Under the pieces are notes generated by a model. The model made no database searches. It was not told the origin of the DNA and saw only the letters and a list, made by a program, of their open reading frames with translations. From contig OZ237750.1 of the NCBI GenBank assembly GCA_965178125.1, positions 496,001-560,000 of the forward strand: a stretch of 64,000 nucleotides of DNA, read 5' to 3'. The position numbers and the translations under genes are program-made. Positions 1-64,000 of the stretch are shown one piece after another. The DNA comes from Bilabrum cf. latius (Eukaryota). Each line of letters starts with the position of its first letter. Within the stretch, counting starts at the first letter, position 1.

Positions 1-1
1 C

Positions 2-1723
2 AATTTGATCCAGCAAAGGTTCAAGTCGGTGTCGGCTCAATCAAGGGCAGAGCAGACAGAGCCACTGGCTGCGGCAGGATCCACTCATCCCGTGGCATTG
101 CCGAGCAACGGCCGCGCAACCAACTCTGCCGCCAGCTCACAAGCAGCCGGCACTGCCCGGTCTAGCCCCGGGCAGCTCGGCGTCCTCTCTCCCATCGTGG
201 GTCAGTAGAGGCTGAGTTCGCCTGACAGCATTCGAAGCGCCAGGAGCGACAGGTCACCGCTGCAACCATCGCAGCGCTCGTTGTCCCCGACAGGACACGC
301 CGCCGGCCTACCTGGTCTCGCGAGCTTGTCTGGGAGCACTGCCGGTCCAGATGTTGCAGCTGATAGTCATGGCGCGATTCGAGTGGACGAATCAGGGTCT
401 GCATCACCCACGCTCGCGACTGATGGCGCGCACGCCAGCCCCCAGATTGGCGGGGGTCGAGTGATGGCAGCCCGGTCGCCTGCGCTGTCATCAACGTCCT
501 CATTCAGGCGAGGGCGCAGAGGACCTGTCGCCGCAATCCGACTGGACAAACCGCGAGCTCTTCCGCGGTTGCAGACAACATCGTTCAATAGAACTCCCAG
601 GGGTGCCGGTTTAGCCGGCGGGTCCGTCGGTGGGAGCATTGAGGCTGCCAAGAAATCTCCGCAGCACGCATCTTCTCCAAGCCTCATCCGAGCTGCATCG
701 TTTTCGCTGCCAAGTGCTCCTGCAATCATTGCGAAGACCAAGCCTAAGATGTTTGGCATGTCGTTTGACGCCTCTCAATTCGAACAGTCCGCCCCAGGCA
801 AGGGCTCGAGGAGCTAGTGGGGCGCCATGCCAGGCAGGCTAGGGTCCATCGGCAGGCAGCGAGAGCCGGACGGTGACATCAAAAAGGAAAAGGCTTCCGA
901 GCTGCTCGGTGAGGAGACCCCGGATGACAAGGCTCCGATGCCAGGCGTGGTCACGGGAAGGATGTCGGGCATGGGTGGTTCGATGCGTGGCCGGATGATC
1001 GGGGAGGCGGCAGCAAGAGGGCGGCTTGGCATGGGCAGATCAGAAACCGATGCGTTCACGAGAGGCTCTCCAGTGCAGACGACAAGGATTAGGAAAGGCG
1101 GCGCTGTTGGGGTCGGCAGTCCGGGCATCCGATCTGTAATTAGTCTGGCGCGCCAGGAATCAGACGACTCTCTAGGCACTGCGGGGACTCGGAAACAGTC
1201 AGGATTCTCGCCTGCGCAGGGCAGCCCGCTCTCTCCGAACATGGGGAGCAGGGCAAGGCCATCAGCCCGAAGTATGGAAAGCCCGTCAAGTGCGGGGTTG
1301 CTTTCGCCGATTCGCGGAAGTCTTGGCTCACCTGGCATTACAGCCAGAGCGGGAACCAGCCCGGTGTCTGCAGCAGGATCAGGATCCCATGTTGCGCAAA
1401 GCCCAACAACAGGCCGAACGTTCGCCAGCCAATCTCCGCAGAAGCATGGCTATTTCCCTGCCAGAGATAGCAGCACAGCACATAGCCCTGGATCTGGTCA
1501 GCACTTAGCTGCCCTTGGTACTGGAAGCCTCCACCGCCGCAATGGTTCACCTTCATCCGTGAGGAGCGGTTCCACTGGCTCTCCATATGGCACAGAACGG
1601 AGACAACTTCCAGGATATGTTGGTGCGGTTAAAGTACCGCCTGCACTACAGCACGGGCTGAGACGGTTCCCGGGAGGGGCTTGCGCGGGCAGTACGCTGG
1701 CTGCCAGTAGACAAGGCACGTGA
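2..1723 (+). CDS. 3' part of an uncharacterised Ser/Gly/Pro-rich, probably disordered protein (5'-truncated by the window edge)
   Basis: ORFs 5..208, 281..817 and 827..1723 are one frame joined by TAG at 206-208 and 815-817. It ends TGA, immediately followed by TAA. No recognisable domain. Confidence 0.7.
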
Positions 1724-1831
1724 TAAGGCTAGAAGTCATTGGACGGACACGGTCTGACGGTGCACGCGGCCTCTGCATGGTTGATTGAGTACAGAAAACA
1801 ATAGTGTGTTCCTTAATTGGCAGTGATTATA

Positions 1832-4028: not shown

Positions 4029-7000
4029 TCACTGCTTGCCTCGACCACCTCTGGCTCCAGCGGCCAGGGCCGGTGGGCGTCCACCAGCAAGGGCCGCTGG
4101 CCGCCCCATCTCCATCGCAGACGCGAGCGATCCTGACCCTGATGTAAGCACACCGAGCGGATTCGCCACACCAGAGCCTTGCACGCGTTCATTGAGCCGT
4201 CTTGAAGAAGGGCTCGCAATTGATGACGCAGCTGCCATTGCGAGTGCCGCTGCAGCCGGCTGCCCACCCTGCATGTCGTTGGCGTGCACAACAGCACCGC
4301 TTTCTACTTTGGCTGCGCTAGCTTTGGCGAGGCGCGCTGCAGCTTCAGATGGTACAGCGTATTCTAGGTACCAGAAGTACCTAAATGCACCAAACCAGCC
4401 CAGCTCCACCAACAGCAGCACGACAACGAGCGGCGCGGGACTGATACCGCCCTGCGCTGATATCAGGGCGGCTCCAAGCAGCATCGACAGAAAGGCCATC
4501 CCGAGCACAACGTACCCACCCAGCTTGTGCCAATATTCCCACGCTGCTCTCCAGAAAGGAACCTACTCGCCAGCGGCGGGCTTCTTTGGCCGCAGCAATG
4601 CATTGATTGGCTAGGCCATGGCTGCCAACCAAACAAGGAGACCAAGGATTCCGTGCCCGGTGCGGAACTACGAGTAGCGGCTCACGGAAGCAACTCCAAT
4701 AATGAACGCTAGCAGCTGCGACACAGCAGAGGCATAGTTCAGCACCTGATGCCACCTGAACCAAAATGGAATCACGTCGCTGCTCGCCTTCAAAGCTGAC
4801 TTGTCAACTCCAAGATCAAGGGAAGGCCCGCTGCTCGACTTAGCCCCAACCACTCCGGCATCCCTCACTGGCACAGGAGGAGGTGGTGGGATACTGGCTG
4901 CTGAGCTGCTAGCGTCCTGGAGCCGTGCGACTGAAATACGGGTGGCAGCAGCGGCGGCTGGCGGGGCTCCAGGCGCTCCCGGGAGAGGTGCGACAACCTA
5001 TCGTTCGGCCACTTGGGATTTCTCGAGCTTGGCCTGCTCTGCTGCTTCCTCAAGCATGAGCTTCGCCGCGATGTCGTCCTAGTCGCTGGCAGTGAGCCGC
5101 TTCTCGGCTGCCTTGGCCTCCTGCTTGAACTCCTCCGCCGCTGCCTCGCCTAGCATGGAGACAAGCTCCGCGTGTGACATCTAAGGCCTACCTTGCTGGC
5201 GGCTGGTCTAGCCCGAAACCGTATTTTCTGGCTCGTACTAGCGGAAAAACCTTGCGATGATCACGGCAGCCGGGGTCAGGATTCCCCAAGCGAGAAACAT
5301 GAAGAATGCGTGGGCTACCTTGGCAGGTCGCCAGCCGGACACGGGCTTGGCTTCTCCAGTGTATAAGTCGACCGTGTAGCTTCCACGTCCAGTGGGACCG
5401 TGGTAGGACGAGGCAGAGATATCATACTTTCCGGCGGGTGCGCGCGACCAGAGGACAAAGAGGTCTCCGTCCTGCAGCGTCTATGGCAGCGAGTATGCCC
5501 CCGTGTTCTCCTGCTGCAAGCGACGCGAGAAGTCCAACACAAGGCCGTCGCTTGCTCTCGGCTGCTGTAGGCGGCGCTGCATGCTTCCATCGGCAAGAGC
5601 TGAGCCGTTGTTGCTCTGCTCCCGCAGATACCTCGCGGTTGTCACGAGTGAGGATCTCCTGCGCAGGCCCTACGGCGGACCAGCGTTGGAGAGGAGGTCC
5701 CATTCTTGGACTGCGATGTTACTAGTGGCACCTTGAGGGTCAACCACCACGGCCCAGGCGCCTTGCATGTCGCGGTTAGGTCCGAATGCGACCGCGGACC
5801 ACCTGTCTTCATCGGCTAATAGCAGTCTCGCGTGCAGGTACTGGGCTTCTTGCTTAGTGACAAGACCGCCGGTCGCAGCTTGAGCCTGTGCCAGCGATGG
5901 ACGTGGCTCCGATGACAAGAACCAACGCATTGTCATTCCATTGGCGAGGTCGACGGCGAAAGGGAAGAGCTCGTCTGGGATATCCGCACCAGAGGCAGGC
6001 CCGTCAGACCGAGTGAGGCCCGTAACCAGGAATGACGAGGGATCAATCTTGCTAGTGTATTTGTCACTGTTGTCATAAAGCGCCGATGAAGTGTCCCTGA
6101 TCAGTTCTTCGAGACGACGTGCCCGCGCATAGACAGTCTGGAAGTTGTCCTCGTCACCCGGGACTATGTCAATCTCTATCTCTATTTCCACTGCGGACAG
6201 GCCATCAGATCCCACAGTTTTCTTTGCTACGCTACCGACCAGGATTTGCTCGCTTGCAACGCCAAGGGCTGAAGCTATGGTCGCTCCGAGGTCCTGTTTG
6301 AACCCAGCAAGGTCTCCCGAGATGGAGGTGTAGCTCACGCCGTGTAGTCGCAAGCGCGCATTCACCACCGGCGGCGATACGTCACCGCTCGTCCCGTTGG
6401 CACTCGGGAATTCGCAAGTGCTCACTCCGTTGATTATACTCCTGGATACAAATCCAGGCGCGCAATCTCTGCACCCGTCACCGTCGTATCCCACGTTACA
6501 GGAGCACGACAAGGGGTCTGCACCAGGCACGACGTCCTGGATGCATACACCGCGGTCGCTGCAAACAGTATCCGCTCTGCAGTTCGCTGGCCGCATCAGC
6601 GTGATGCTAAATGCGCCCGAATCAAAGTGCTGTGCGGGCTGTCCCTGCGTTGTCATGAGCCCCATGGCGTAAATGAAGTCGGTCTGCACGCCGGGCGTGA
6701 GATCCACGTCGATGTCCTCGTCCACCTTCTTCGTCAGCCTGCGGCGAAAGTGGAACAGCCGGTCTGTCCCAGCAAGAGAAGCATTCGAAGTCAGCCTCGG
6801 CGGCCCAGAGTACCTCACGTTCTCATCCATGGCGGCGGGTGTCGGCGCTCTAGACACGCCGGGCTGTCCGCTGCCGATCATCTCAAGCTCCCAGGCCGAG
6901 ACCACGCCACCGTTCAAGTCTCCCACTACTGCAAGGCCAGTCTCAGCCCCGATCATCCGGCCGTCTCGAGATGGCGCCACTGCGATGTACCCCGCAGGCT

Positions 7001-9833
7001 GCAGCGCCCCTTCGTCTGCAAGGCGCTCGAGCTGCATGCGGACGAATAGATCGGCACCTCCGTTCTCCTCCACGTACTCTGCGTCCACAATCTGACCCGC
7101 CACTGTCTCAACTTGCCATCTGATTCTCAGGTCCTGCGCGATGTCCTTCACTTGCTTCGTAGGGAACTCGAATGCGGCAAGGCTGACATTGGAGCGCGGG
7201 TCCTGCGGCAGCTGGACGACTACAGGCTGCAGCTGTGAGGGCAGACGGAGCCCGTCGGTGCTTTGGAGCCGCTGGTCGTTGCCACCAGCATCCCTCTTTA
7301 CAGATACTTCCACCTATTCCACCCCAAGAAGCAGCCCCTCAAGCTGAAGCTCGAACTGCAGCGCGATGCCTGCTTGGCCGGCTGGCGGGTTTGCCAGCCA
7401 GCTTTTGAGCATCGCTGGCCGCTCGTTGGCTGGAGCTAGCCCCTCGTTAGGAATCCAGCGCACCTCAAAAGCAAGTTTTGCATCGAATGCTTCACCATCA
7501 GCCGGAGCTAGCGCCTCGGAGTAGTCGATACGCACTCGAGCGACATCATTCTTGTCGACTGGGATGTCCGCAGCGACCTCTGTGCCTCTGGGCGGATCCA
7601 CAAAGTACGCCCCCATAATGTACGGCGTGGCTGACAGGCCAAGCGTCACGGGACTTTCAGGGTCATATACGTCCTCACCCTGTGAATCGACGAGGCTCTG
7701 CGTCTCTGCAAGCTGCACCCGCACGGACTCGTCCCCTAGCTGGACCCCCTCGAGAGCGATCGGGATCACCACCTCATTGGACAGCGAGCCCGCACGTGTG
7801 CTTGAGAGAGCCATCGTCAAGTTTGAGCCGTTTAGCAGCGTCACGTTGAACTGCGATATGTCTGGCAAACCGCCAGCTTGGGTCACGTCCCGGGCGAAGG
7901 ACACGGTGATGGCTGTGTTTGCAGCGTTGATGGAGGCAGAGAACGTCGTGGCAGCCAGAAGGCGAGCCACCGGAAGCGGGTCAGGATTCAGAACGATCGC
8001 ACCGCTCTGATCCTCTACATTTCCCTGAATTAGACTCACGGTGACGGCCTCAAATCCGTTCGTCGGCCCTTCCAGTCGCAGCTGGAGGTCCCAGTTGGAC
8101 CCGTCGTCGAAGGGGACAGGGGAGCGAGTGACCGTGAAGGTCTGCAGGTAGATCGACCGCCCACCGTTCATAACGACCCTGAAGCTGGTCGCATCGAGGT
8201 CGTCCCCAGATCCTGCTTTCTTCACGGGGGACTGAAAGGTAACCCTGATGACGTCTGTCGCGTTGGCCTCGCACCTGAACCCAGTCTGCTTGCGGAGGGC
8301 GACGGTCGTAGGGGACTCTGGTGGAGGCACTATATTTCCATTGTAGTCCATGACGGCCTAATTTGCCACGTCCACCTCAAGCACTTCGTCGCCTGTCGCC
8401 AGGCCGTTCAGGTTGGGCCGGATGCTGTAGGCTGAGCCGCTGGGAACTACCCCGGTTGCCACGTCAACGGTGAAGCCAAGCAGCGGCGATCCACGGTATC
8501 CGGGCACTGGCCCCACGCTGAAGCTAGACTTCACCAAGAAATCCTCCCCATTGGAAGCTGCAGTGCCCACGATATCCGTGAACTGGACGAGGATCGTGTC
8601 ATCTGGCTGCAGGGCCGCTGTGTATGTGGCAGTCCCGTTCAGCTCAGACTGGAAGCCTTGCTACGGGGGAATGAGTTCCACGCTGAATTGGTTCACGCAC
8701 TTGCCCGCGGCGATATTCATGCTCGCAGTCTCTGTGCCGTCGGGAGCGGGATTAAATTGAGGCCGGATGGTGTAGACTGCGAAATCGTCCGACACATCGA
8801 TCTGCAGCCCCGTCAGGTTTGCCGTGCCGCCAGACACCGCAAACACAAAATCTGAGGGTCCGAGCGCCAAAGACTCGTCTGTTTTCTGGTAAACTGGCCC
8901 TGAGAATTCAACGACAAATGCGTTGCCTCTGCCGGCGGCCCGGAAATCGATGTCAGTCGCTGGGATGAGGTTTGACTGGAATGGGAATCCGGGTGGTATC
9001 CTGGTCCCGGTCGTGATGTCTTCGATCTTATCTTCCACAACGTCAATCGACACGATTTCGGATCCGTCGGGTTCTCCATCGAGGACCAGAACGACCCTGA
9101 ATTCGGAGTCGAGTGTAGTCGTGGCCACAGAGTAGGAGGTGAGCGTTGCAACCCCGCCAGCAAGCGACACAGCAAACGATGAGTCATCCAGCTGGCCCCC
9201 TCCCACCGCTCTCACATCGCCAAAGAAGTGGACTAGAACTGAGTTGTCTCCCCTAACTTCGATCTCCCTGATTCCGACGCCCGCACCTCCAGCTGACCCC
9301 TCCACCACTGTGGTTGACAAGGTACGGAAGCCTCCACCCGTGACCAGGTACGCGATGAATTCAATGTCACCAGTTCCTGCATCTGGAACATCCCAAATTC
9401 CTGTTGCTTCTGAGTATGAACCGCTGCTCGAATGCGTGATGCCGTTGCAGTCAGAGTCCTACAGCCCGACGGCACCGCTCTCGGCAGAAAGATCACCCGC
9501 CTCAGTGATGGAGCTTGGCGTGATCGACTAGCCAGTGTGTCCAAAGGCAAACAATCCATTGAATGCATCTGTTTCTCCCGAGTTTCGCCGGATGCACAGG
9601 GTGTACTGCACCTCCGAAGCGTTCCAATTAGTTGTGCGCAGCGTGCATTCGCTGTCTTCAGCAAGGTACAGCTAGAATTTCCCATCATCACCAAGACTAG
9701 TAGAATGCTTTGGCTAGTCCGCCGGAGTGTCCGCGCAAGACCCACTCTGTCCGTTGAAGCCAGTCGGATACGCAAGTGTGGCGGTAGAGACAATCACTGC
9801 AGCAGCCACAGAGAAGGCAAACCTTTGTCCCAT
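4029..9833 (-). CDS. FRRS1/SDR2-like ferric-chelate reductase, ~1,934 aa: signal peptide, Reeler, ~6 Ig-like repeats, DOMON, EGF, DOMON, cytochrome b561
   Basis: One intron-less frame from ATG 9833 (alternative in-frame ATG 9842) to TGA 4029, broken only by TAG. Reeler motifs AYPTG...C...H and CNGITH...W..P...G.IEF.A; DOMON motif FIYAMG...QH; EGF CSDRGVC...CSCNVGYDGDGC; b561 haem His motifs HAFFMFLAWG, WFRWHQ, HGILG and WEYWHKLGG. Confidence 0.85.
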
Positions 9834-10027
9834 GCAATCCATAAGAAACGGCACCGAACCCCACTGAAGCTGCAAATACTTTTAATATCCCAATTCTGTG
9901 CTCAAATCCTGTTATGGATCAGGCAGGAGGACGGTGCACCGTCACGTCTCGGACTCATGCTCTACTCTTGTAGCGTGCAATAAAACAAATACAGATTGGG
10001 CCGCCGAACTGCAACAGCATTTTTGCC

Positions 10028-11854
10028 ATGCTCTCGAAGGTATTCGCGATAGCTGCATACGCTGGATGTGTACAGCTGTGCGCCTCATCCATTATCTCGG
10101 ATCGAATGCGTGATGCTGCGAAGAAGATTAAAGACAAGTCTCTAGAACGAGCTGCAAGCCAAAACGACACTGCTTGGGACCGACTGGCAGAGGTTGTGGA
10201 CACGTTCGGCCCGCGATTTAGCGGTTCTGATGCGCTGGAAAGCGCTTTGGACTGGTTCGTTGCAAGCATGCAAGCAGATGGCTTGAATGTCACTTCTGAG
10301 CCCGTCAGCATCCCTCACTGGATCCGTGGAGCTGAGTCCTTGCAAATGCTGGCGCCTCGACCACAAAAATTGCATATGGTGGGACTAGGAGGGTCTGCGG
10401 GGACTGGTGGAACTCCGCTCGAGGCAGAAGTTGAGGTGTTTGCATCCTTTGATGAGTTCGAGCAGAAGATCCAGGCGAACCCTGACCTAGTTCAAGGCAA
10501 GATGGTCCTGTGGAATGCGCCGTTTGTGACGTACGGTGAGACAGTAGCCTATCGTAGCCAAGGAGGCGTGAAAATCAAGCCACACGGAGGTGTGGCAAGC
10601 CTCGTGCGATCGATCGGCCCCTACAGCATGCAATCGCCGCACACTGGCGGCACCGCCAACGTCTCCGGGATCCCCTAGGCAGCAGTCTCTCTTGAAGATG
10701 CTGGTCTCATCGCCAGAATGCGCGCTCGTGGGTAGACTGTTCGACTGAGCCTCAGCATGGGAGCGCACTGGATGCCAGAGCGCATGTCTCGCAACCTCAT
10801 CATCACAATCCCTGGGTCGGAGCTGCCTGACGAGTACGTCGTGTTTGGCGGGCACAGCGACTCGTGGGACATTGCACCTGGCGCGATGGATGATGGCGGG
10901 GGTGTCGTATCCACTTGGGAAGCCATGCGGCTCCTGCACGAGCTGGACCTCAAGCCGAAGCGGAGCATCCTGGGAGTGTTCTGGGTGAACGAGGAGAACG
11001 GGGCTAGGGGAGGTAGCGCGTTCGCCAAGGCCATGGGGGAGAGGCTTGATAGCGTCACAATGGCCATCGAAACTGACATCGGCGCCTTCACTCCGTTTGG
11101 ACTGGGCGTGTCTGCCGACGCCGAAGCCACTGAGACAATGCGACAGCTGGCTCCGCTCTTGGACCCAATCAACGCGAGCGAGGTCAGGATCGGAGGGGAG
11201 GGCACCGACATTGAGCCCACCTGCGCGAAGGGTGTTCCCTGCGCCTCCGTCCTCGTCGTGGACCCGCGTCTCTCGTTGCGACCCAACAACCCATGCCTCA
11301 TGCCCGTGCAGGCTGCTCTCACTGCTGGAGGCGTCCCCGACGTGCAGTCCGTCCCCGGGGCCTCGTACTATTACGACGCGGGGTACTTCTGGTACCACCA
11401 CACTGAGTCTGACACGCCCGACAAGATGGACGTGCAGGAGCTGCAGCTAGTCGCTGCGACGCTCGCCACCTGGGGGTATGCCCTTGCGGATGCTCCCGAT
11501 CTGCTGCACAGAGGCGGCGAGGAGCCCACCCCGACACCCGAGCCGCCAGCTCCCACGCCCTACGCAAACCGGCTTGGGTGTGGTGAGGACGACCAGCAGC
11601 GAGCAAAGATGCTGAGCAGCGCGGTCATCGCCCTCAGCCTCGTGTGCGTTGGGCTTGCCTGCGGGCTCGTGGGCGTCCTCGTGTGGTTTCGGATGTCTTC
11701 GAACGGTTACAGGAGTCCGATGGCAGTGCAGCTGCACGACACAGATGGTAGTGGGAACATGCCGGCCACGTCATCATCTATGGCAGGCACGGATGGGGCC
11801 GGTGCTACTGGTATGGACAGTAGTTCGTCCGCACACGAGTTCACGCAGTTCTGA
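10028..11854 (+). CDS. CPQ: Carboxypeptidase Q (M28, PA domain) with a C-terminal transmembrane helix, 608 aa
   Basis: Signal peptide; DTFGPRFSGS, HWIRG, LGLGGS-like, SPHTG, GGHSDSWD, GAMDDGGG, NEENG and YFWYHHTESD motifs. ORFs 10028..10678 and 10757..11854 are joined by TAG at 10676-10678 and 10733-10735. Ends TGA. Confidence 0.92.
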
Positions 11855-22240: not shown

Positions 22241-22374
22241 GTTCGCTTGGAGTTGCTCCCTTTCGACAAAGATTTTCTGGTCGCACGAATGGTCGCAACG
22301 CCGCGCACGCCGTGGTTCCGCAACTGCCAGCTCGAAAATCCGTTCCAAAGTGAAGCAAAATTGGCATCACAGTA

Positions 22375-25211: not shown

Positions 25212-25275
<64 letters not shown>

Positions 25276-47700: not shown

Positions 47701-48475
47701 CAGAGACTAGCTGTACCCTCAGCAATATTAGCGTAACCACCAACCAAGCCAGCCCGCAGAGCACCCCGACAGCCTGGGCAAGGCTAGGGCTCTCCCGAAA
47801 CAGCGGTCCAGTCGACGGGACAGGATCACTGTAGGACTATATTGGCACTGGAATGTCGGAAGAGTTCGATATGATAGTCTAGTTGAGTCCTGCAGCGGCG
47901 GTTGACTGTGGGCTTGGCTCGAATCGGCCCCAGTCCATGCGCTCCTCGTACATGACTCTGTCGAACAAGAGCAAGCTCTGGCGGTGGCGAAACGTGTACG
48001 GTAACGCTAATAACCACAGAATTAGCACCGGCATAGCAATTTGTAATGCTATCGGTGGCAAAGAGTACTCCAAAGGTCCGGTGAGTACGGCCGTCTGGTT
48101 GCGACAGCAAGCAGTTCCGATTCGAACGTCCCTCTGAGCAATACCTCCATCATCTGCAATGAAAAAACAGTTTACAATTATTTCATTCAATGCGCTTCAT
48201 GATGAGCGCTCTATCGGGGATATACAAGTGCTGACACGATGTCGGCTGGGTCTCTCACCAATGAGCTCGGCGTACACACGCTGCATCCAAATGGCCATAG
48301 CGTGCGGATCTTCCCAGACAGGCATGCGAGGAGCGTGACCTATATCATCCGCTTGTTCGTCAACAGATGATACCTGCACAGAGCGGCTGCCGGTTTGAGT
48401 GCCTCGTTGGTCGCGTCGCATAAGACGCCGGAGAAGCTCGACCCCGTTTGTTCTGGTAGCGGCAGATGCTTCCAT
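32798..48475 (-). CDS. Giant ~5,190-aa protein: 2 x (~6 TM + degenerate class III nucleotidyl cyclase) fused to a split AGC-type Ser/Thr kinase; exons 48259-48475 and 32798-48153
   Basis: More than 20 ORFs share one frame, and every gap I checked contains only TAG (~50 by hand count). Intron 48154-48258 removes a TGA. Kinase motifs LGAGAFGRV, AALK, HRDIKPGN, DFG, GSPHYLAPE, DYYALG and HPFF. Cyclase-like GVAQG...CGFL...WSVFGD and VHFGSVVLG...WDAFGTTLRNASAL. Ends TAA. Start codon less certain. Confidence 0.8.
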
Positions 48476-48891
48476 AATACACAAGTATTTAGCTCGAGAC
48501 AATCTTGAGAAAAAATTGGCACTGAGAGAGTTGGGAGGTCAATCTGTTTGTTCGCGTGTGGGCGAGTAATTATTCTTAGCTTCATCTTCATTGATTGAAA
48601 CGGTCGCTAAAAAAACAAAGCACTCAGATGCACAGCAGGGTGCTTCCGTTGCGTTCCACATGAGTATACGACGTTGTAGAGCACATGGTAACTTACATCG
48701 GGGCCAGCAGCAAGTGAAAGCGCAGCGCACGCAGCCGACTTTTGCAACTGCCGCAGCCGGTTGCAACCAGTAGGATGTTGAACTTTCAAGAAGAAGATTA
48801 AAACCAGTAGATCGCCGCCGCGGATCTCGTGTTGCACGTGCGGGCCTTGGGAAGCATCCGACTCACACCTGTCTCTCAAGCAGAGTGCTCG

Positions 48892-51800: not shown

Positions 51801-54800
51801 CACTTTCAACGGGCACGTTGATGTCTAGCTATGGTTTGGGTGCCTCTATACCAGAATCAGGATCAGCGTCGGCACCAGCGGCAGCAGCACCGTCGGAGCT
51901 AGCTTCAGTCCGTCCACCAAACTGCTTGGTCTCACCCTTTTGCGTAGACCCTCCGTATGCGGTCTTTGGCTGATCTGAAGCATTTTGTTTTGAAGCACCA
52001 GCACTGTGATGGAGGTTTTGTGGTGACTGGCTCGCGCCGATGTGGGTGGCATCCACCGAGGCAGTTCCTCGTGCCGCTTTGGCACCTGCGTCTCTTTGAG
52101 GCCCACCCTTTTGCTTCGAATCTTCGAGTGCAGGGCTTTGCATGGATGGCGTGATCGGGGGCAACTTGGATTTCGGTGGTGGACTGCTGGATCCGGAGGT
52201 CCCGGTTGTGGCAGCGGTTGGCTGTGCGACGGACATTTGGCCTAGTTCCATTGCTAGGATCTCTCTCTCCGTCGGCTTCCTCTCGAGTGTCTTTTGAGCG
52301 GCTTCTTCAACAGCATCGGACTTGGCCTCGCCATCATCTTTGCCGCTGGATTTGATGGACGACCTGCGGCGCTTCTTCATTGATCGGGCGGCCACTGCAT
52401 CAGCAGAGCCCGTCGCCTAGCTAGCCTGCTAGCCGCTGTCGTCAGCAAGCAGCGGCTTGGTGCTGTCCATCGAATCAGCATCATCATTGATACCGACTTG
52501 ATCACCAGTTCCCTTGCCAGCTGCATCATCCTCGTCACTGCCACCGTCACTGCCTTGCAACTTGGGAGCAAGCGGGATCTGTTGCACGATGGTGGCTGCC
52601 CTACTGGCCGCAGCCTCCTCCTCCCTGGCATCTGCGAGCTCCAAGTACCATCGAGACCCCTTCGAGTCACCCCGCACCTAGTCCAGAAACTGACTGTAGG
52701 CTCGCAGCACCTGCGTGCTGTAGCTGTGGTTCTCAAGCAGAGCCACGAACGACCTCGAGGCGCTCTCCTCCGCGCTGCCGATTCTCGCGATTGCGTCGCG
52801 TACCTCCCGCATGTCTGCGTTGCCCCTCGTCATCATGGATGCAAACGACTATAGCTCTTCCATCGCGATACGATGGTAATGCTGCGCGCTCCTCAGCGAT
52901 TTGGACAGGTCAAGGTATCTCACGGTGCCGACACCGTTAGCCAGCTGCTGCCTCCTCCTCTCGAACAGGTACCGAAAAAAGCAGTACCGAATGTCTAGCA
53001 TGTTGATCTTCGCCGCTGCGGAAGCAGACATGCGCACTGGTAGTGCCTGGCCAAAGAAATGATGCACGTTTAGCATAGACAGCCAGAAGAGGCCGTTCTC
53101 CTGCAGATGCCTAGCTGCGTGCGAGTATAGCCACTGCATGACGAGCCCCCTCTTCTTCTCTCTTCGCCAGCGCTTCCGCGATTCCTCTGCGATCTGAACC
53201 ACGGTGCTGGTCTCAATTCCGCTCGCTGCCACGCTGCCAGCCTCGGACGCTTGCTGTTGTTGTGAGAGCAGCTCATCGTCGTCGTCATCATCCTCGTCGC
53301 TCTCGTTGAAGCCGGCGTCCTCATCGTGGTTCGCGGTCAGGGTGATGCCCAGCAGGGACAGCAGCGAGAACTGCCTGTTGCTCTGGTCTGTGCTGCGCTC
53401 CAATCCGACGAAGGCGGAATCCGTGCGGCGCATAACGTGCCGCACCATGATGTCTACATCAGATTCCCCGGCCGCGTCGAGCCCCAGCCGGGACACCAAA
53501 CCGGCTTCGGCGTGCCTGCCTCCGGTCGTGATGATGTGGTACATCTTCGAAACCTTTGGCATCCGGCTTGTCACTAGAAACCACCGTCTGTAGGCAAGAA
53601 GCCATCCAAGGTAAGCCGCTGGTCCCGCCCCCACCAAAAGCAGGTCTCCGGACGCGTCTAGTGACAGACCCAGCACTCGGCACGTCTCACAGATGGATGC
53701 CCACAGGAAGAGAGCAAACGCGCCGCATCGGAATTGATTTGAGGCCTGGCTGTTGTACGGGAACATCAGCAGGATCTGGTATAGCATGATAGTTGCAATG
53801 ATCGGCTTCGCCAGCACGAACAGTGGGTCCACCACGCGCTGCACATGGTCGAGGAGAATGAGGACCAGCTTGAGCACCAGCACCAGGACCTCGGATCTCC
53901 CATGCGTCATGCCGAAGGAGCCCTCCACATCCACTGCGATCACGGCCGTGACGAACGAGACAGCTCCAAATAGGACAATGAGGATCCAGGCAGCAATGAC
54001 CACCCCAACGTTGATTGGCGTCCCTTCGAACGCCGCGTACTCAACTACACCGCCCCTTGGAAACGGGATGGCAAAGTTTGACAGCAGTTCCACTATTGGC
54101 ATATACAAAAAGGTCACCTGTGCACAGGGGGAATCGGATTGAGCTGTGGGTGAGCTTTGCTATGATTTTCATCGCCGCCTAGTAGCAGTGCGTGTAGCAT
54201 GCTCAACCACGTCGCCAAGTATTTTAAAGACGATCTTCTGCCAATTTATTGCTGCTAGTCATTGAGTGCACTCAAGGCGCGAGGTCGTTCTTATCTTACG
54301 AGTGAAACGATGAAAACCCGGAGGAAATCCAGTGCTCGTGATGGCGACGTGGTTGAGCATTCTAAACGCACTGCCACATATGTCAAGGTGCCCAAGGCGA
54401 TGAAAATCATCGCAAAGCACACCCACAGCTCAATCCGTTTCGCTTCATGCCCGACTGATTGGAATACTGTCGCCATGTACTCGCTCGCCTGCTGCAGGAT
54501 TCCGACCAAGCTACCGGGGGGAAACTGGAACAAATCTTCAGAGAAGTTTGTGGCTAGAAGCTACAAAGGTTCCTGTGAAAAATCTCGAAGAAGTAGCGGA
54601 GGAACGGAGGGTCGGATATAAAAACCATGGTTCAGAGCACTCGGAACAGTCGGTCGCGTATTGCGCGTATTGCTCACCACCAAAAACGCAATTGCGAGCA
54701 GGTACGCTTTCACGCTATTCTATGACATCATTGAATATATCACCAGAAAAATTGCTGCAGGGTTGCTTTGTCATGGCTCATTGAAGCAGTAGTACGTGGC

Positions 54801-54945
54801 CTTTGCTAGCGGCACATGCGGGCCAACTTTGGCTTCGCTCACCTCGCTCAACTGATGCAAGCTTCCCAGAGCCAAGGGTACTTTGAAAGGCCTAGTTGCC
54901 TGAGCTTGATGTAAACGCGCTTCCATTCGTGCGTCTTTTCGCCAT
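48892..54945 (-). CDS. TmcB/TmcC (tiny macrocysts)-like multi-pass membrane protein, ~1,892 aa; probable introns 54755-54842, 54573-54677 and 54118-54299
   Basis: N-terminal TM bundle (IFLVIYSM, EPL*LL, FLYMPI, PYNSQASNQFR), LDIRY.FF, and A..F..LL..H..S..VLRAY..FL..VR.D TPR-like motif, followed by three further TM pairs. Only TAG in frame; ends TGA. The 5' exons are inferred from splice signals. Confidence 0.75.
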
Positions 54946-55088
54946 CTCGCAAACAGTGTTCCAACAGAAGAACACTCAAGCTATAACCGGAACTAGGCTG
55001 TCGCAACCGGAGGATGCCAATGGTCGCAGGCAACACACTGATCGGCCAATGAAATTCCTACGCATACCCATCCAAAAATCAAGTCATT

Positions 55089-56717
55089 TCACCCCGGCTC
55101 CTTCCCGACCCCAGCCCCACTCCCTCCAGCCGCACCCCCCGTCGCCGCCCCAGCACTAGCACCCGCCTCTCCCTCTTCTCCGCCCTGCTTCCAGACCCTA
55201 CAAGTGTTATCCTTGGACCCCGTGATGATGGTGTCCCCCGAGTAGTTGAAGGTACACGAAAAGATTTCGTCCGAGTGCCCCTCGAGCACCTACAGACACT
55301 CTCCCGTGTCTGAGTCCCACACCCTCGCCGAGTGGTCAGAGGAAGCAGTCAGGATGCGAGTGCCCATTGGGTTAAACGCAACCTTTGATATCTCGCCCTC
55401 ATGCCCCGCTAGGATATTCGAGCAGGCGTGCGTGGCAGCATTGTAGATCCTGGCAGTCCCGTCCCCCGAGGCAGTCACCACCTTCCGCCCCGTGCTGTCG
55501 AATGCGACGTCAAGGACCTCGTCATGGTGGCCACGAAGAGTCGCCTCGCACTTGCCCGTGCCCACGTCCCATAGCTTGGCGGTCTGATCGATGGAGCCGC
55601 TTACCACCTTGTTGCCCTCAAAGTTGAAGCAAGTAGCGGAAATCTCGCTCTGGTGGCCCGTCAGGACGTGCGCGGCGCCGCCCGTGCGGACGTCCCAAAG
55701 CCTCACGGTCTTGTCAAAGCTGGCCGTGACGAGCAGCGAGCCGGAATTATTGAACTGCAGTGCCACCGTCTCGGCGGTGTGCCCTTTCAGCGTGTGCAGC
55801 TCCCTGCCAGTCACCACGTCCCACACCTTGGCAGTGTGGTCCATCGATCCGCTGGCCACAAACGAGCCTGTCGGGTCGAACTGGATGCAAACTATCTCTT
55901 CTTCGTGGCCTTTGAACGTGTGCTTGCACTCGCCCGTCTCTGTGCTCCAAAGCTTCGCCGTTTTGTCGAAGGATCCAGTCACGATGAGGTCCCCGAACGG
56001 ATTGTTGAACGAAATGGCGTACACAACGTTGCGATGACCTTCCAAGACATGAACTTCGTCACCAGTAGCCGTGTCCCACACCTTGCAGGTGCGATCATAC
56101 GATCCAGTGATGAACCGGCTGCCGCTCTTGTTGAACGCGCAGTTCGTCAGTGGCAGAATGTGCGCCTTTAAGGATCGGAAAAGGCGGTAAGAGCGATCTG
56201 ATGGATCTTCCAGCTTGCTTGCCATCTGCAACAAATGATGGAATGGAACTTGCACGATAGCGTGGTTGTGCTGAGATTAGTTGCCCTGCATAGCTGCCAC
56301 GCTCGAATCGAGATTCTCACCCTGCGCAGCAACTTTTCCAATTGCGGGCGCCTAGCTTCTGACACAAGAGGCTCTCGGAGAACTATATCCTATGCAAGTT
56401 TTGAAACGTCCGTACTGCGGATATAAGTATCTTCATGAGAGAAACGCGCCTTCACGTGCAACGTATCGGAAAATCCTTGGCATGTTATGCACTTTAAAGC
56501 TTCTTACGTCGGCGATAGATGCAACAAATCCAATGTTCTGGTACCTTTGGTCCCATTTTTTCTCTCAAACTCCAAGATAAGCCCTGCAAGTTGAACCAAG
56601 ACGGAAAGGCAAGAATAACAAAATCAAATACAAGCTCACTCCCAGCCATTCGTGGGAAAGAATTGCATCGAGCTCACCTGGGGGATAATAACGAACTAGA
56701 AACCTTCTCAATTTCAT
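55089..56717 (-). CDS. DAW1: Dynein assembly factor with WD repeats 1 (ODA16/WDR69), 448 aa; exons 56678-56717, 56508-56583, 56321-56414 and 55089-56225
   Basis: [14 protein letters not shown] start; [38 protein letters not shown] and eight WD40 repeats; [14 protein letters not shown] with TAG at 55290-55292. Three GT-AG introns of 93-95 bp. Ends TGA. Confidence 0.95.
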
Positions 56718-56835
56718 AATTCTGACTCTGCGACTGCAAAGGGGTTCTCTTTACGGCCGCGAGCCGAATCGATCGTAAAAAGTACACGTTACCGGCATTG
56801 ATCGGTCCGTTGCACGGAGCAGTTTATTGGACGCC

Positions 56836-59451
56836 ATGGCTGAAGATGCTCGCCTACATGCCATGAAATCAATGCATCAGGAGAAAACAAAGTCTTTGAT
56901 GCGATCAATATCCCTGCTTCAGAAAGAAGTGCGCTCATTGAGAGCACAAAGCAAGGATCACCGCAGAAGCGCTCAACTACAAGCCCTGCAGCAAGAAATC
57001 AGAAGATAGGAACTTGTATCCGAGGTTTTGAAAGTGTTTGTAGAAAGAAGCTGCGACCTAACACGAGAGCAAGTGGATGACATGGTAATGAAGAAAACAA
57101 TCGGTGCCCCGCTTCGGTTTACCCCAACGAGCAGGGAAGAGCTCGCCATGGAAATCGTCGCGCTCCGGCGAAAAGTCAAACAAATAGAATCTAAGAATGC
57201 CAAGTTGAAGCTCAGAGGTCGCAAGGGTGCGCACAAGGGCCCAGAGGCGAAATCACCTGATGAAGCCACGGATCGCCACACGTCTGTGACGCTGCCATCG
57301 CTGCCGTAGGCCTTGCCTGGCAATGAAATGGCTGATGCAGGTTATGGTTACTCCGTGGACTATAGAGCTAGGGCTGGATCATCCAGTAGCAGGCCCTCCA
57401 CAGCAGGTGCGGCAAGTGCGAGACCGGCACGGGCTTAGATTGCGAGCACAGCTGCGCTTCGGCGAGTGGTCGAGAAACTGGAAGCCGACCTAGACGGCTA
57501 GAAGCAAGCTGTACAGTCACTGCAGCGTGAGCTAGCGGCATCGCAGGAAGAAGCCGAGCGCCTGGCCCTATTCGAAGACAAGGCGAGGCAGCTCGCCACA
57601 AAGTACTCCCACGCCAAGGACGCGCTCAGGGCTATGCGAGACGAAGTCGCGGCAGAGGCTAGGCGCAGGGAACAAGAGGCGTCCAGGGCCCGAGAGGCAA
57701 AGGGAGAAGCCCTGGAAGCCCGCGCCAAGCTGGAGGCGTACAGGGGGGAATCTGACAAGGGGAGGACACAGCGGGCCATGGAGACAGCCAAGGCGTCGAG
57801 GGACAAAGTCGAGCTCATGACGTCGCTGCAGGAGGCGAGGGACGCCGCGCGAGATGCGATGGAGCGCGCCGAGGCGGTGAGAAGGAAGGCGCAGGCGGAG
57901 TCGAGGGCTAGAGGGGAGGCCGAGCAGGCGGCCAAAGAGGCCAGGCAGCAGGCCGAACAGGCTGCGGCCGACGCCAAGCGCGCGTAGAGGGAGAGCGCAG
58001 ACGCCTCGACGCACCACAGGACCCTGATGTCGGAGAGAGACGAGGCCCGCACAGCCCTCACTCACGCCCGGGAGGCCCTTGCGCAGGCCAAGGAGGAGCT
58101 TAGGACCACAAGAGAGGAGGTCAGGGAACAAAGCGACAAGGCCGCCACCGCCCTCGCCGGGCAGGCCAGGGTATCGAGAGAGGCGGCAGAGCAGCGAGCC
58201 CGCGCGGAGGCTCTCGAGCGAGACACGGAGGCCCGGGGGGAGGAGCAGCAGAGAGCCAGGGAACAGGAACAGAAGTCCAGGGAACAAATCGCCCGGCTGG
58301 AAGGCCAGCTGGAGGACGCGAGGGAGGATGCGAGGCGGGCCACGGAGCAGAGCCATGCAAGAGCGACCAAGCTCGAGCAGCTCCTCGAGAAGGTACAGGC
58401 CGCCAAGGAAGAGCAGCAGCGAGCAGAGGCACTGTCCGAGAAACGGCTGGCTGCGTGCGCTGCCGTGGCGTCAGTCCTGCGAGACCTTGGGTCGCGTGCC
58501 AGAGCGGTGAAGAATGCATGCGCCTAGCGGGCCGGTGCTGCCGCTTCAACCACCGGCGGAGCTGCTGGTCCGGACGGCAGTGGTGCGATGCAGATCGGCG
58601 GCGAGGCAGTGGCGAGGCTTTAGTCTGCCGCTGTGGACGCCGGCACGTGTGCACAGCTGCAGGAAGGTGCAGAGAGCGTGGATCAGGCACTGGCGGCATG
58701 TGGAGCGCTGCTCAAACAGCTGGATTCCGGCAGCGCAAGCACAGCTGCTCCGGAGATATCATCGGTTGAAGGCAGTGGGGTGGGCGATGGGAGTACTAAA
58801 GGTCGGGCTGACCTAGAGAGTGCGAGCGGGACCAGCAGCAGGTCAGAATCGGGTGCTGCCGCCCGTGATGGTGATGACAATGACGAGGCCAGCGACCAGG
58901 GCAATGGCCCTGATGATGTGGAGTCTAGAGAAGGGCACGAGGGCGGGTAGGAGGTAGCTGATCCTTCAGCTGCCTAGGCCATGCCACGCGAAGGCCAAGA
59001 GCAAGCCCAAGGGCCATAGGCAGGGGCATAGATCTAGGCAGGGGCAGTCGATCTACCTGGCGGGCATGATCACGGGATAGGAGCAGCAGAAGATGCGGAT
59101 AGAGAGGCAGATTCTGTCAGTCCAAAAGAAGATCAAGTAGACGGCACAGACACCTCTGGCAATGCTGCAGATTCGCAAGAACTTGCGGCTGCTGGCAGGA
59201 GCGGGATCGCCGCTGTCGGGCAGGAGGACAAGGACCGGGGTGGCGGCGAACAAGACTCGGCGAGCGGCGGTGATTCGAAGGAAGAACTTCAACTGCATTC
59301 AGGTACACAAGACAATGGTGCGCGAAAAGCGCATTCCGGAGTTGCCTCTGCGGCAGACGGGCAGGGGGATGCTGCCGCAGGTCCACTGGCAGCTCTAGAG
59401 TCTGGTGCTGGTGCTGACGAGCTGAGCGATTCGGATGAAGATTCGAGCTAA
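56836..59451 (+). CDS. Coiled-coil protein with acidic disordered tail, 871 aa
   Basis: ORFs 56827..57009, 57028..57309, 57634..57987, 58027..58527 and 58633..58950 are one frame joined by TAG. Ends TAA at 59449-59451. Head-to-head with DAW1. Confidence 0.8.
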
Positions 59452-59848
59452 CGATGATTGAGCATGAGAACACGCGTTTGAACCTACCATTTTATTTTTC
59501 GGTGCGGCCTATGGTGCATGAGCGGCCCCGGTCGCGGAACCGACCGTGACAACTCGGAACGGTCACCAGCAACTGATGCCGATCACCACCAACAAGCAAA
59601 GCATCAACATTGCGTGCGCATTTTTGCAAGCAATACCAGTTCTATTGTCGTTAATAAACTGGTGAGCTCCTGGTTATGCATAGATCTTGCGGCTTTGCGC
59701 TGGGTACTACAATGGTGTGGTGCGCGTAGCCGGCCTAGAACCGGTGACTACGAAGGGCAGACTGCATAATTCATCTGGCCGTTTCCACACTACGATAATT
59801 TAAATGCATGCAATAGTATTCACTAAGCCGCAGATTTGCTGGTGAAGC

Positions 59849-61996
59849 ATGGATTTGCACATGGATCCGGCACAATACCGATACGATGTATGGCTAAACA
59901 ATGTGAAAATGCTCGTGGTCCCGGCAGCTGTAATGGGATTCATTCTCATTGTCTAGGTCTGTGCTCCGAAAAGCGCTGATTCCTCCTTGGGCAAGAAGCC
60001 CGTAGCGCCAGACAAGACCTCCCAAAAAGAGAAGGTCCCTAGACTTGCTCGGCTGGATACACATGGACTTATCCTTTCACCCTGGAGGATTTCAAGTCTT
60101 ACTTTAGATAGTGGAGATTCTTCTGGTTGGTTCAACCTTGCGTATTTGGTCACGCTTTTCTGGTGAGGTCGATCGAGAGTACCTGCTGCTGCACCGTGAC
60201 AGCTAGAGCGACAGAGTCCTGGTCGGAACACAAGAACCCACCTTTCGCAGGTTTGTCTCTTCGTTGGTGTCAAATGTATTCAGGACTGGTGGCGAGTCAG
60301 TCTTCCTCGACAGAGGATTCTTCGTTGTATCAGCATTCAGGCGGTCGCACGAGCTGGCAGTTGCTCTTGGCTTGCTGTACTGTCTGTTCAGCCTAGCCTA
60401 CGTGCTTCAGCTCGTTGCCATGTCCAAACTAGTGCCATACAGCGTAATCATTTTGATTCAAGCTGTACTAGAGGGCGTTTTATTCTTGAGCGCGCTGGCG
60501 TACTCCACATCGGACGACGCCGTTAAGCGATGGCCGTTCTCGCAACGCCTGGGCCTCATGCTGCAGTCATCCGTGTTCATCCTCAAGATGCACTCGTACC
60601 TCGCGGTCAACAGGAAACTAGCGCTAGCGGCCGAGGCCGAAGCGGCAGGGAGGCCCCAGCAAGTAGAAGCGAGCACTGCGACCAGCCAGGACGTCAAAGG
60701 GCCAGGCGATTCTGGGCCGGAGGACGACGACGAGTCGGAGTCCGAGTCGGAAAGCGGCAGCGCGGGGCGCAGGGGTCGGGTGCGAGCCGGAAGTCGAGCC
60801 AGGCTTGCAGCACGCAAACGCCGCAGTACTAGTAGGAGCAGGGCTGGAGGCCGGTCCAGAAGCCGAGGGAGCGACTCGGACCGCAGGAAGCTCAGCCGAA
60901 ACGGCAACGCCGGACAGGACCAAAGCGAATCCAGCTCAGAAGATGGCAGTGCACCTCGAGCCAAAACTCGAGGTGCGCTGGTCCGCAACCCTGCGGGCCT
61001 GGACTACATCCCGGCCATGCCGCCCATGTACCCCAACAACGTGACCTTCCTCAACTTTTTCAATTTCAGCTTTATGCCGACCCTCGTGTACCTGCCGACG
61101 TACGCCATGACGAAGCGGATCCGCGTTTTCTACTGCGTGGAGAAGTCGCTGCTCGGGCTAGGCCTGCTTTTGGTTGCAATGACGATCGTGGGACACTACG
61201 TGCTGCCTGTCTTTGCACGGATGCCGTACAAGCAGCCGATCGAGGCGGTCGCTAACCTGATCATCCCATTCATTTGCCTACTGTAAGACGACCGGCACAG
61301 CACAGCCACGGCAGGGGCCTAATTCCTGGGTCTTCATGCATATCTAGCTGCCTCATGCCGACTTTACCCCCCCCCCTCCTCTTGTACCCCACTCTCGTCT
61401 TTTCCATCTATCGCAGGTTCTGTTTCTTCTTCATCGTGTTCGAGTCTATCCTCAATTTCTTCGCCGAGGTGACTCGCATGGCCGACCGGACCTTTTACCG
61501 AGACTGGTGGAACGCCACAAGCTACACGGCCTTTTCCCGGGACTGGAACATCCCGGTGTCCGCGTGGCTGAGGCTGCACGTGTATGAGGAGCTGCAGCTG
61601 CAGGGGCTCCACAGGGAGACCTCCCGCCTGATCACGTTTGGCATCTCGATCGTGCTGCATGAGCTGGTGGCCATGGGCGTTGTGGGAGTGGTGTCCCCGT
61701 GGCTTGCTCTCTTTTCGGTGCTGCAGTTCCCGCTCTTCTCCTTGATGCGGTCGAGCTTCTTCAAAGGCAAGCGCCTGGGAAACCTCGTGTTTTGGCTGGG
61801 GCTAGTGGTGGGCGTGCCACTCATCGCGGTGCTGTATTCGCAAGAGTACTGCGCCAAGCACCGTGACCACTGCGGCAAGCTGAAGGATGAGCTGGCGACG
61901 TGGCCGCTCATGGCCAGCCCGGCGGCATCAGCCGCTGTGGACGGCGAGCAGGGCAAGTGTGAGTGCAAGTGCGAAGCAGAGGCAGAGGAGGCTTGA
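59849..61996 (+). CDS. MBOAT O-acyltransferase, DGAT1/sterol O-acyltransferase subfamily, ~641 aa; introns 60163-60250 and 61283-61416
   Basis: LKMHSY, YPNNVT..NF..F.FMPTLVY, FAEVTRMADRTFYRDWWN, WNIPV..WL..HVY and catalytic S...HE motifs. Start codon uncertain (59849 or 59861). Ends TGA. Confidence 0.88.
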
Positions 61997-62330
61997 AATG
62001 CCGGCAAAGAGAAAATATGGCTATTACCCTGCATAAGCCCCTGAAAGTAACGGGCCATGTCGCGTGAGCGGAGTATAGCATCCGTCGCCACCAGCCAACG
62101 CGGTGCACTGCATGGCATGATGCCATGCGTGCACCAGGCTGGCTGGCTTGGGTGTGAAGCCGCGTTGAATTGATGTCGTACTAGATCTGTGGGTGCATCC
62201 ACCATCCTTACAGGCTTACCAGTAGCCAGAGACTGCAGGCAGGCCAGGCAGGCCACCCACAATTCTGGCTTGCACTCGTCATGGCACGCCAACACCCCAG
62301 TGCGCTTCCGATGCACTCAACCTTGCCACA

Positions 62331-64000
62331 ATGATAAGGACAGAAGCCGCTATAGTATCTGGTGCTATTTTTCGGACTGCTTTGCGATGTCGTGGCGCAA
62401 CGCTTCTGCGATAGACCTTGAGTGCCGCTGGACAGCAGAAAAGATTTCGAACAGTGATGCCCTCCGTCTGGGGAATCGACATCACGTGCTCGCATCCAGA
62501 CGCGGCATCGTTGTATGATGATGCAGTCAATTCGGTAAGCAGCTCTTGAGTACCGGACCCTGCTAGCTCATGTCCGTCCTCTCACCGCAACCACTTCACG
62601 CGGACATCACAACTTTCGTCTTGCAGTACTTGTCCCTCACGGGCGATCCTAGCGGGAAATGTGCAGCGGCAGTCGAGCGTGATCCTGGAATGGTGATGTG
62701 TATTGCTTTGGATGGTTTTCTGCACCTGCTATCAGGTGGCTGCACTGGGGATCACCCGGCGGTTCGCATAATGCGAACTCGAGTCCAAAAGCTCGTAGAA
62801 AAGAACCACTGCAGCCATCGCGAGCGATGCTTCGTAGCAGCGTTCACATCTCTAGCAGAAGGAAGATCCCGCGAGGCCACCGCTATTCTGGAAGCCTGGC
62901 TGCTGGAGCAGCCGGTGGACGCTCTCGTAGTTCGGGTTCTCCACGACATCTACTTCCACCTGGGCGATTCCCAGCAGCTGCGGGATTCTCCTGGGCGAGT
63001 CCTAGGCGGATTCGATGTAGCGAGACCGGGATACCTCAAGGTGTGCGGCATGTTTTCGTTTGGGGCCGTGGAGATGCACCAGTACGGCCTGGCGGAGGAG
63101 CAGGGGATGCGAGCACTCTCCGAAGACATGAGAGATCCTTGGGCATTGCACGCAGTGGCGCACGTGTATGAAATGCAGGGCAGAAAGTACGAAGGCTAGC
63201 GACTTCTGCGAACTACAAGGTACTGGTGGGATTCGGCCAACTTGATGTTTACTCACCTGCACTGGCACTGGGCATTGTTTCAGATCGAAGACGGCTAGTA
63301 CGAGAAGGCGATGCAGAGGTACGACATGTGGATCAGGGACGGGCACAGCAATCAGTCCCTAGACCTTGCAGATGCTATTTCAATGCTGTGGAGAATGGAA
63401 TTGGCCGGACAGAACGTCTATGACCGCTGGATGGAGATGCAGCCGCTGGTGCGCGACCACTGCGGGAAGCACACTACCGCGTTCTTTGACGTGCACTATG
63501 CCATGTGCCTGGCTGCATGCGGCGACGATGATGGATTGGATGAGCTGATGGAGTCCATGCGCCGGTATGCCCTGGATAGTCCCCTGTATTCCGAGGCGCA
63601 CTCGAGCACCATTCCGACCCCAGCAGACGAGGATGTGCCTCTGGTCGATCCCACCTGGGGCTGGGAACCGTGGATGACGCAGGAATCGGAGGATGAGGCA
63701 AGGTGGAGATCGTTCTGGAGCAGCAGGGGCGTGCCTGAGCACGCCACCATCGACCCAATCGCGCCAGATCCCACCACTGGGGAGGAAGTTAGCAAGCCGA
63801 CAAGGCCGGAGCCTGGCAGCGCATCGCAGGCATCGCACGATGGAGATCTGTTGGAAGAATCTAATGCCGTGAAGGGGTACTCTCTCAATAATACAGCAGA
63901 TAGCACACATCGCTCGCAGGAAGGCATCGTGCCAGTGAGCAAGGAGTCCGACCCACTTGGAGGAGGAGAGCGCACCGCGGGCGTGCCGGCCATGTATGGT
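62331..64000 (+). CDS. TTC38: Tetratricopeptide repeat protein 38 (3'-truncated by the window edge); intron 62535-62626
   Basis: RE..F, DPWALHAVAHVYEMQG, HLHWHWALF.IE.G*YE.A...YD, DA.SMLWR and F.DVH..M motifs. TAG at 63197-63199 and 63296-63298. Arg-rich transit-peptide-like N-terminus (alternative ATG 62457). Confidence 0.88.

Follow-up and report, generated by a model that had tools for sequence, protein, structure and literature searches.

Genes of the window and their in-frame TAG codons

This analysis concerns a 64,000-nucleotide stretch of contig OZ237750.1 (the window, in whose coordinates all positions are given) and the meaning of the codon TAG within its protein-coding genes, which an original prediction had proposed to be a sense codon, most likely for glutamine. 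The window has a G+C content of 58.4%. Under the standard code the longest stop-to-stop frame is 617 codons (frames of at least 100 codons were counted), and with TAG taken as sense, frames of 5132, 1950, 1758, 1612, and 1489 codons are obtained across both strands. The corresponding readings of the other two stop codons were rejected, given that the longest frame is 918 codons with TGA as sense (versus 5132 with TAG) and 617 codons with TAA as sense, the same as under the standard code.

Sixteen coding segments on both strands were delimited by using TAG-sense frames, Pfam matches, and splice joints; the principal features are listed in Table 1. These segments comprise 17,288 codons and contain 133 in-frame TAGs, with no in-frame TAA or TGA. 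Fifty of the 133 sit in a single frame (32801-48196, minus strand), which also holds two of the three tandem TAG-TAG pairs, the third being in the OSCA/CSC1-like gene, and the base directly after TAG varies (G 46, C 40, A 30, and T 17). The original prediction had described more than 100 in-frame TAGs on both strands, about 50 of them in one exon, with tandem pairs and varied flanks, and the counts agree with that description; the seven TAGs that it quoted are all in frame and in the peptide contexts it gave. Thirteen gene segments run as far as a stop; the further statement that nearly every gene is split by TAG held for 11 of them, each with at least one TAG, and failed for the DNAAF3-like gene and the last MBOAT-like exon, which are TAG-free.

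Counted in all six frames, 1.71% of the window's triplets are TGA or TAA, so that 5132 consecutive codons free of both would be expected by chance with a probability of roughly 10^-38.5. The frequency of TAG is 0.77% in coding frames versus 0.87% over all frames; it is thus about as common in one as in the other, and is not avoided in genes. Pfam families recognised in this TAG-bearing window are WD40/DAW1, UCH and zf-UBP, Pkinase, M28, DUF4471, and TPR_TmcB. In-frame TAG is abundant in intact, conserved, and expressed genes of both strands.

Table 1. Features of the window, with in-frame TAGs and gene ends; an asterisk in a peptide marks a TAG quoted in the original prediction, and E values are for Pfam families
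Feature	Position	Strand	In-frame TAGs	Gene end	Details
Repeated extracellular domains with C-terminal cytochrome b561-like membrane region	4032-9881	-	17	TGA	1950 codons
Quoted TAG, A*PINAL	4611-4613	-
M28 peptidase gene	10034-11851	+	2	TGA	E 6.1e-24
Coiled-coil protein	12016-16482	-	17	TGA	1489 codons
USP39/Sad1-like gene	17100-19511	+	5	TGA	804 codons; UCH E 5.5e-25, zf-UBP E 3.3e-15
Quoted TAG, ECF*G	18111-18113	+
Ankyrin-repeat exon	21773-22366	-	4		including 21875-21877 and 21890-21892
Quoted TAG, G*TPLH	21875-21877	-
Quoted TAG, DV*D	21890-21892	-
DNAAF3-like (DUF4471) gene	23060-24736	+	0	TGA	E 1.1e-57
OSCA/CSC1-like channel gene	27155-31945	+	10 (one tandem pair)	TGA	PHM7_cyt E 1.8e-6
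Giant low-complexity protein with split protein kinase domain	32801-48196	-	50 (two tandem pairs)	TAA	5132 codons; Pkinase E 1.3e-41
Quoted TAG in kinase helix E, MA*LIAAV	38846-38848	-			aligned to solved kinases
TmcB-like membrane protein	48895-54168	-	10	TGA	1758 codons; TPR_TmcB E 9.7e-16
Quoted TAG, EPL*LL	54561-54563	-
DAW1 (WDR69) dynein assembly factor, last exon	55092-56225	-	1 (55290-55292)	TGA	WD40 E 5.4e-85
Quoted TAG, CL*VLEGH	55290-55292	-
Coiled-coil protein	56839-59448	+	12	TAA	870 codons
MBOAT-like gene	59833-62191	+		TGA (61994-61996)	RNA-defined exons 59833-60161, 60250-61282, 61417-62191; coding sequence ends at the TGA
TTC38-like gene	62627-64000	+	2		cut by window end

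The protein kinase domain of the giant gene is split, with the N-lobe at about 38.6-39.2 kb and the C-lobe (APE motif region) at about 34.9-35.1 kb, and some 1250 residues of low-complexity insert part the DFG from the APE motif within the 5132-codon frame. Its "DFGLS" and C-terminal "HPFF" motifs look AGC-like. In the protein encoded at 4032-9881, a domain of roughly 100 residues is repeated many times in tandem, and an EGF-like, cysteine-rich stretch and a DOMON/cytochrome b561-like membrane portion follow the repeats; the protein matched no Pfam family at an E value of 0.001 or better. A search of the ESM Atlas with the DNAAF3-like protein returned unrelated prokaryotic clusters, with a best score of 0.80. 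Long (Gly-Ala)n dipeptide runs occur inside otherwise conserved proteins (18800-18900 in USP39 and 24560-24600 in the DNAAF3-like gene), and an (Arg-Asp)n run was found in an RS-rich gene (25080-26033, minus strand); from these runs, coding microsatellite expansion seems to be common in this genome.

Residues and codons aligned to TAG

The strongest evidence on the identity of the residue comes from the orthologous codons of close relatives. A scan with the TTC38-like protein yielded two metagenome contigs of the Joint Genome Institute, L001 (4891 bases) and L002 (2482 bases); the two do not differ where they overlap, and they share about 75% amino-acid identity with the window protein. Their TTC38-like frames (838 codons with seven TAGs in L001 and 672 codons with six TAGs in L002) both end in TGA, and both fall apart at TAG under the standard code. 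Both TAGs of the TTC38-like gene in the window stand opposite CAG in L001 and L002, and four TAGs in the conserved part of the L001 gene stand opposite CAG in the window. The TAG-free DNAAF3-like gene of the window was used as a partner for the TAGs of the relative, and the three TAGs of the L001 DNAAF3-like gene were found opposite CAG, CAA, and CGA. The MBOAT-like and TTC38-like genes adjoin in both L001 and the window; the gene order differs in that the DNAAF3-like gene comes next in L001, on the opposite strand, and lies about 38 kb off in the window.

Codon pairs were then tallied for those columns in which at least six of ten flanking residues are identical. In this filtered set, all eight TAGs (two from the window and six from L001) are opposite CAG (seven) or CAA (one), and no TAG stands opposite any of the 334 codons counted in the window for E, K, R, L, T, S, or A (0/75 for Leu, 0/42 for Ser, and 0/30 for Thr codons). 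The 21 glutamine codons of the window are matched in the relative by glutamine codons (12), TAG (6), Arg codons (2), and an Ala codon (1). TAG thus behaves as a further synonym among the glutamine codons, interchanging with CAG whichever of the two organisms carries it, and this habit is found in at least two species.

A further orthologue, the protein P0144, was the only match in a word-index search with the cytochrome b561 region, to which it is 90% identical over 375 residues. Its residues at five window TAGs are Q, K, Q, Q, and E, and the site at which glutamine had been predicted from a "QP" motif is among those with Q. P0144 starts with a methionine immediately past a run of three window TAGs, which is exactly the product to be expected of a standard-code gene caller halted by in-frame TAGs in that organism.

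Conserved columns of more distant homologues were examined for three other sites (in DAW1, USP39, and the kinase) at which the original prediction had expected the glutamine of the family. The DAW1 column has Q in 84 of 107 covering homologues (of 120), and in 68 of 80 by pairwise BLAST. At amino acid 338 of USP39 (TAG 18111-18113, the predicted "FQG" site), Q is present in 19 homologues, G in two, and A in two, the search having returned 23 homologues only. The TAG in kinase helix E is aligned to Q in CIPK23, E in PKC eta, and Q in PknA (among the matches listed, five alignments representing three distinct proteins). Glutamine was accordingly recovered in homologues at four of the predicted sites, that of cytochrome b561 included; the two quoted ankyrin TAGs fall at what we take, from the repeat consensus, to be variable positions and are uninformative on the residue. 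At both TTC38-like TAGs, Q is present in the five closest of the 11 homologues displayed (51-62% identity, including Cafeteria).

A pooled, Codetta-style log-odds score was calculated over six conserved columns with a coverage of at least 60%. The score at TAG is +6.8 bits for Q, -6.3 for T, and -6.6 for A, and in a control on the 60 ordinary codons with four or more columns, the same procedure identified the residue correctly for 59. By alignment, glutamine is by far the best-supported meaning of TAG.

Terminators, transcripts, and alternative readings of UAG

The 13 gene ends in the window consist of 11 TGA, two TAA, and no TAG, and in the 11 genes holding TAG, 31-571 codons separate the final in-frame TAG from the stop that follows. 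In the coding segments, TAG and CAG occur in a ratio of 133 to 533, and there are 199 CAA codons and no TAA; if TAA were used in the manner of TAG, about 50 would be expected beside the 199 CAA. The TAA-free frames together with the TGA and TAA gene ends lead to a code in which UAG specifies glutamine and UAA and UGA are stops. A match to NCBI table 15 is therefore supported, as had been predicted. NCBI table 6, in which UAR is glutamine, was ruled out by the lack of in-frame TAA and by the two genes of 13 that end in TAA. That code is used by many ciliates, hexamitin diplomonads, some ulvophytes, Streblomastix, and Amoeboaphelidium; it likewise turns a stop into glutamine, but UAA is also glutamine there, whereas here it is a stop.

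The alternative that survives best is a dual meaning of UAG, mostly glutamine within genes and a terminator in some contexts, as in ambiguous codes of the Condylostoma, karyorelict, or Blastocrithidia type, where one codon is both sense and stop depending on its position. Thirteen gene ends are too few to exclude occasional UAG termination, which is a point against a purely sense UAG, and contigs cannot show transcript 3' ends. Moreover, the MBOAT-like tail of the relative holds three TAGs in 25 poorly conserved codons and could be untranslated sequence past a TAG stop. Set against this, none of the 13 genes ends in TAG. The 31-571-codon spread also fits a uniform rate of one TAG per 130 codons, and sequence past TAG is still conserved in DAW1, the cytochrome b561 protein, and the TTC38-like gene. 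We regard a dual meaning as improbable.

Several further observations weigh against glutamine as the residue at every TAG. K and E occupy two of the five TAG positions in P0144. In L001, one TAG in the poorly aligned tail of the TTC38-like gene is opposite AAG, one in the DNAAF3-like gene is opposite the window CGA, and three in the unconserved MBOAT-like tail are opposite CTC, GCC, and GAG. At amino acid 47 of USP39 (TAG 17238-17240, plus strand; CPYLA*VDR), Thr is found in 20 of 20 covering homologues, and at amino acid 91 (TAG 17370-17372, plus strand) the homologues have T (9), A (9), F (2), L (1), and V (1), so that two of the six conserved columns, both in USP39, misfit glutamine. Among 150 representatives, Ile predominates in column 191 of the TTC38-like protein (72 of 144, against 7 with Q, which is confined to the closest homologues), the other TTC38-like TAG column having E 37, D 35, R 21, and Q 17 (of 143). 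Only one solved homologue (3iib) extends across the two M28 TAGs, and its residues there are A and K. No tRNA of any kind was found by ARAGORN or Rfam in the window, L001, or L002, and the window contains no eRF1 gene. If TAG is glutamine, amino acids 47 and 91 of USP39 would be lineage-specific replacements of Thr by glutamine, one of them at an otherwise invariant site. These two USP39 columns, along with the description of the same code in other lineages (see below), are points that the original prediction missed.

Such misfits could be taken to mean that UAG specifies some residue other than glutamine, with Glu, Lys, Leu, Ser, Thr, Tyr, and Trp as candidates, or that it is read as a mixture. 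The Thr and Thr/Ala columns of USP39, the K and E in P0144, and the E in one of three kinases at helix E fit this reading, and UAG as Leu, Ser, or Glu is on record in other organisms according to the accessible text of PMC11687900. The reading is contradicted by the filtered tally, in which every well-aligned partner of TAG is CAG or CAA and none is a codon for E, K, R, L, T, S, or A, and by the pooled score, in which Q ranks 13 bits over T and A. Furthermore, a single base change would turn any of the K, E, and R partners into a glutamine codon, and these residues are usual substitutes for glutamine. A residue other than glutamine is considered very improbable.

Sequencing runs were used to examine whether the TAGs are present in DNA and retained in RNA. 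Four DNA runs of one sample contain all sampled words of 54900-59900, and one of these (X1) covers 44001-64000 at an even depth, with no splice joints and in agreement with the window. Three other runs (X5, X6, and X7) are from two other studies, carry other organism labels, and have no library type on record. They were taken to be RNA-derived because their contigs join exons across eight GT..AG introns and because their depth differs from gene to gene. DAW1 (upstream of the last exon) and the MBOAT-like gene each contain three of these introns, and the other two are at 48153/48259 and 62533/62626; the intron lengths are 88-172 bases.

Over the 20 kb compared (44001-64000), contigs of the three RNA-derived runs show no differing letters, including at every TAG. 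At least 20 distinct in-frame TAGs are carried unchanged in these pieces (one in DAW1, 10 in the coiled-coil gene at 56839-59448, at least seven in the giant gene, and two in the TTC38-like gene). The DAW1 TAG is covered by contigs of all three runs, with no other letters. The same is true of an X5 contig over the TTC38-like gene (62626-64000) and of a second X5 contig (57389-59487), which covers 10 TAGs and ends 36 bases past the TAA of the coiled-coil gene. Spliced, RNA-derived contigs with unchanged TAGs exclude both an assembly artefact and RNA editing. The original prediction had named transcripts showing CAG or UGG, and raw reads showing CAG, as findings that would count against it; the RNA contigs keep TAG, and the DNA runs agree with the window. 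That the TAGs are not translated as such, owing to assembly or sequencing error, editing to CAG, or decaying pseudogenes, is scarcely credible, as no point in its favour was found, the independent metagenome contigs of the relative have the same TAG pattern, and decay would also yield TGA, TAA, and frameshifts, none of which occurs in 17,288 codons.

Two details of the transcript contigs were also recorded. The DAW1 contigs of all three runs break at 55152-55164, 60-75 bases before the TGA stop (55089-55091) is reached, and a further X6 piece spans 54766-55083; assembly probably failed here, in a GC-rich, low-complexity stretch coding for Gly and Ala, and the break is not taken for a transcript end. 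A joint from 55525 to 58596 in X5 and X6 contigs skips 3070 bases, with a shorter side of 20 letters, and is likely a chimeric contig or repeat rather than an intron because its ends (GG..AT) are non-canonical.

With these alternatives weighed, the window very probably belongs to the nuclear genome of a flagellated protist in which UAG is translated as glutamine in the cytoplasm and termination occurs at UGA (mostly) and UAA.

Decoding, lineage, and significance

The assignment of UAG to glutamine could be accounted for by a tRNA-Gln with the anticodon CUA. This anticodon would pair with UAG but not with UAA, leaving UAA as a stop, and the release factor eRF1 would have lost or weakened recognition of UAG. 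Such a UAG-only reassignment would be mechanistically easy, given that an anticodon-CUA tRNA reads UAG and not UAA, as the accessible text of PMC5304391 reports for Tetrahymena tRNA-Gln(CUA). The searches with ARAGORN and Rfam described above found no other RNA genes in the window, L001, or L002.

The code itself is already known from other protists. Glutamine at UAG with UAA as a stop was first documented in Iotanema spirale (Fornicata) by Panek et al. 2017, where NCBI table 15 is noted to have been misattributed earlier to Blepharisma (PMC5304391, accessible text). The ciliates Hartmannula sinica and Trochilia petrani (phyllopharyngean) were added by McGowan et al. 2024, in whose accessible text Protocruzia tuzeti is also cited (PMC11687900). 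As far as these texts describe it, Iotanema has the same table, with UAG alone as glutamine, and the same CUA tRNA logic, but it is an unrelated anaerobic metamonad with UAA as its main terminator, whereas TGA ends 11 of the 13 genes here and the genome is GC-rich (58%). The three ciliates likewise share table 15, with UAG spread along gene bodies like a synonymous glutamine codon; they differ in having 93.5-100% UAA terminators, whereas here TGA prevails, introns are 88-172 bases long, and the nearest named relative is Cafeteria. The intron lengths and the affinity to Cafeteria argue that the organism is not ciliate-like. Other lineages have, as here, reassigned only UAG, with UAA still a stop, but to a different residue: to Leu in the uncultured rhizarian exLh and some phyllopharyngean ciliate metagenome-assembled genomes, and to Ser in Scotinosphaera (PMC11687900, accessible text).

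The original prediction had been aware of no description of the code in a lineage of this type. This stands insofar as no report of nuclear stop-codon reassignment in stramenopiles was found in the full-text literature, from which most subscription journals and supplements were out of reach, so that absence is unproven; the code as such is published in Iotanema, Protocruzia, and the two other ciliates.

The lineage was assessed from several genes. Among named matches, the TTC38-like protein is closest to Cafeteria roenbergensis/burkhardae (57% identity, one gene), and USP39 to Chrysoparadoxa (45% over 25% of the query). In a DAW1 tree of 27 rows the query falls in a non-opisthokont polytomy, and a cluster look-up of 30 proteins returned only Cafeteria and Cryptomonas as protist names, any other names being those of animals. 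Flagellar dynein assembly factors are present among the window genes. The G+C content of 58% compares with about 70% for Cafeteria and 46.8% for Halocafeteria (preprint, accessible text), from which the organism would be neither. On these sequence comparisons it is probably a heterotrophic stramenopile near the bicosoecids, a placement in which we have modest confidence.

The window is a new occurrence, probably in a new major lineage, of a code variant that is rare but already known. Changes to the nuclear code are seldom seen. Different meanings for UAG and UAA are rarer still; the accessible texts of PMC5304391 and PMC11687900 record them for a fornicate, a rhizarian, a green alga, and a few ciliates. 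Another lineage, unrelated to these, would provide one more independent case of the capture of UAG with UAA kept as a stop, in a group that is GC-rich, uses TGA over TAA as its main terminator, and has close relatives differing by TAG-CAG flips. We tentatively propose, at somewhat less than even confidence, that the code restricted to UAG-to-glutamine arose independently in a free-living, GC-rich clade of heterotrophic stramenopiles related to the bicosoecids and is now present in two or more species, of which one has been met in metagenomes alone.

Annotation under the standard code fragments most genes here, and public protein collections already contain such fragments of relatives, P0144 being an example. 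Gene catalogues and phylogenomic matrices of the group will consequently be wrong unless table 15 is used. If the proposal is true, stramenopiles would gain their first reported case of a reassigned nuclear stop codon, and the TAG-CAG flips between close relatives would offer a live system in which the spread of a reassigned codon may be followed.

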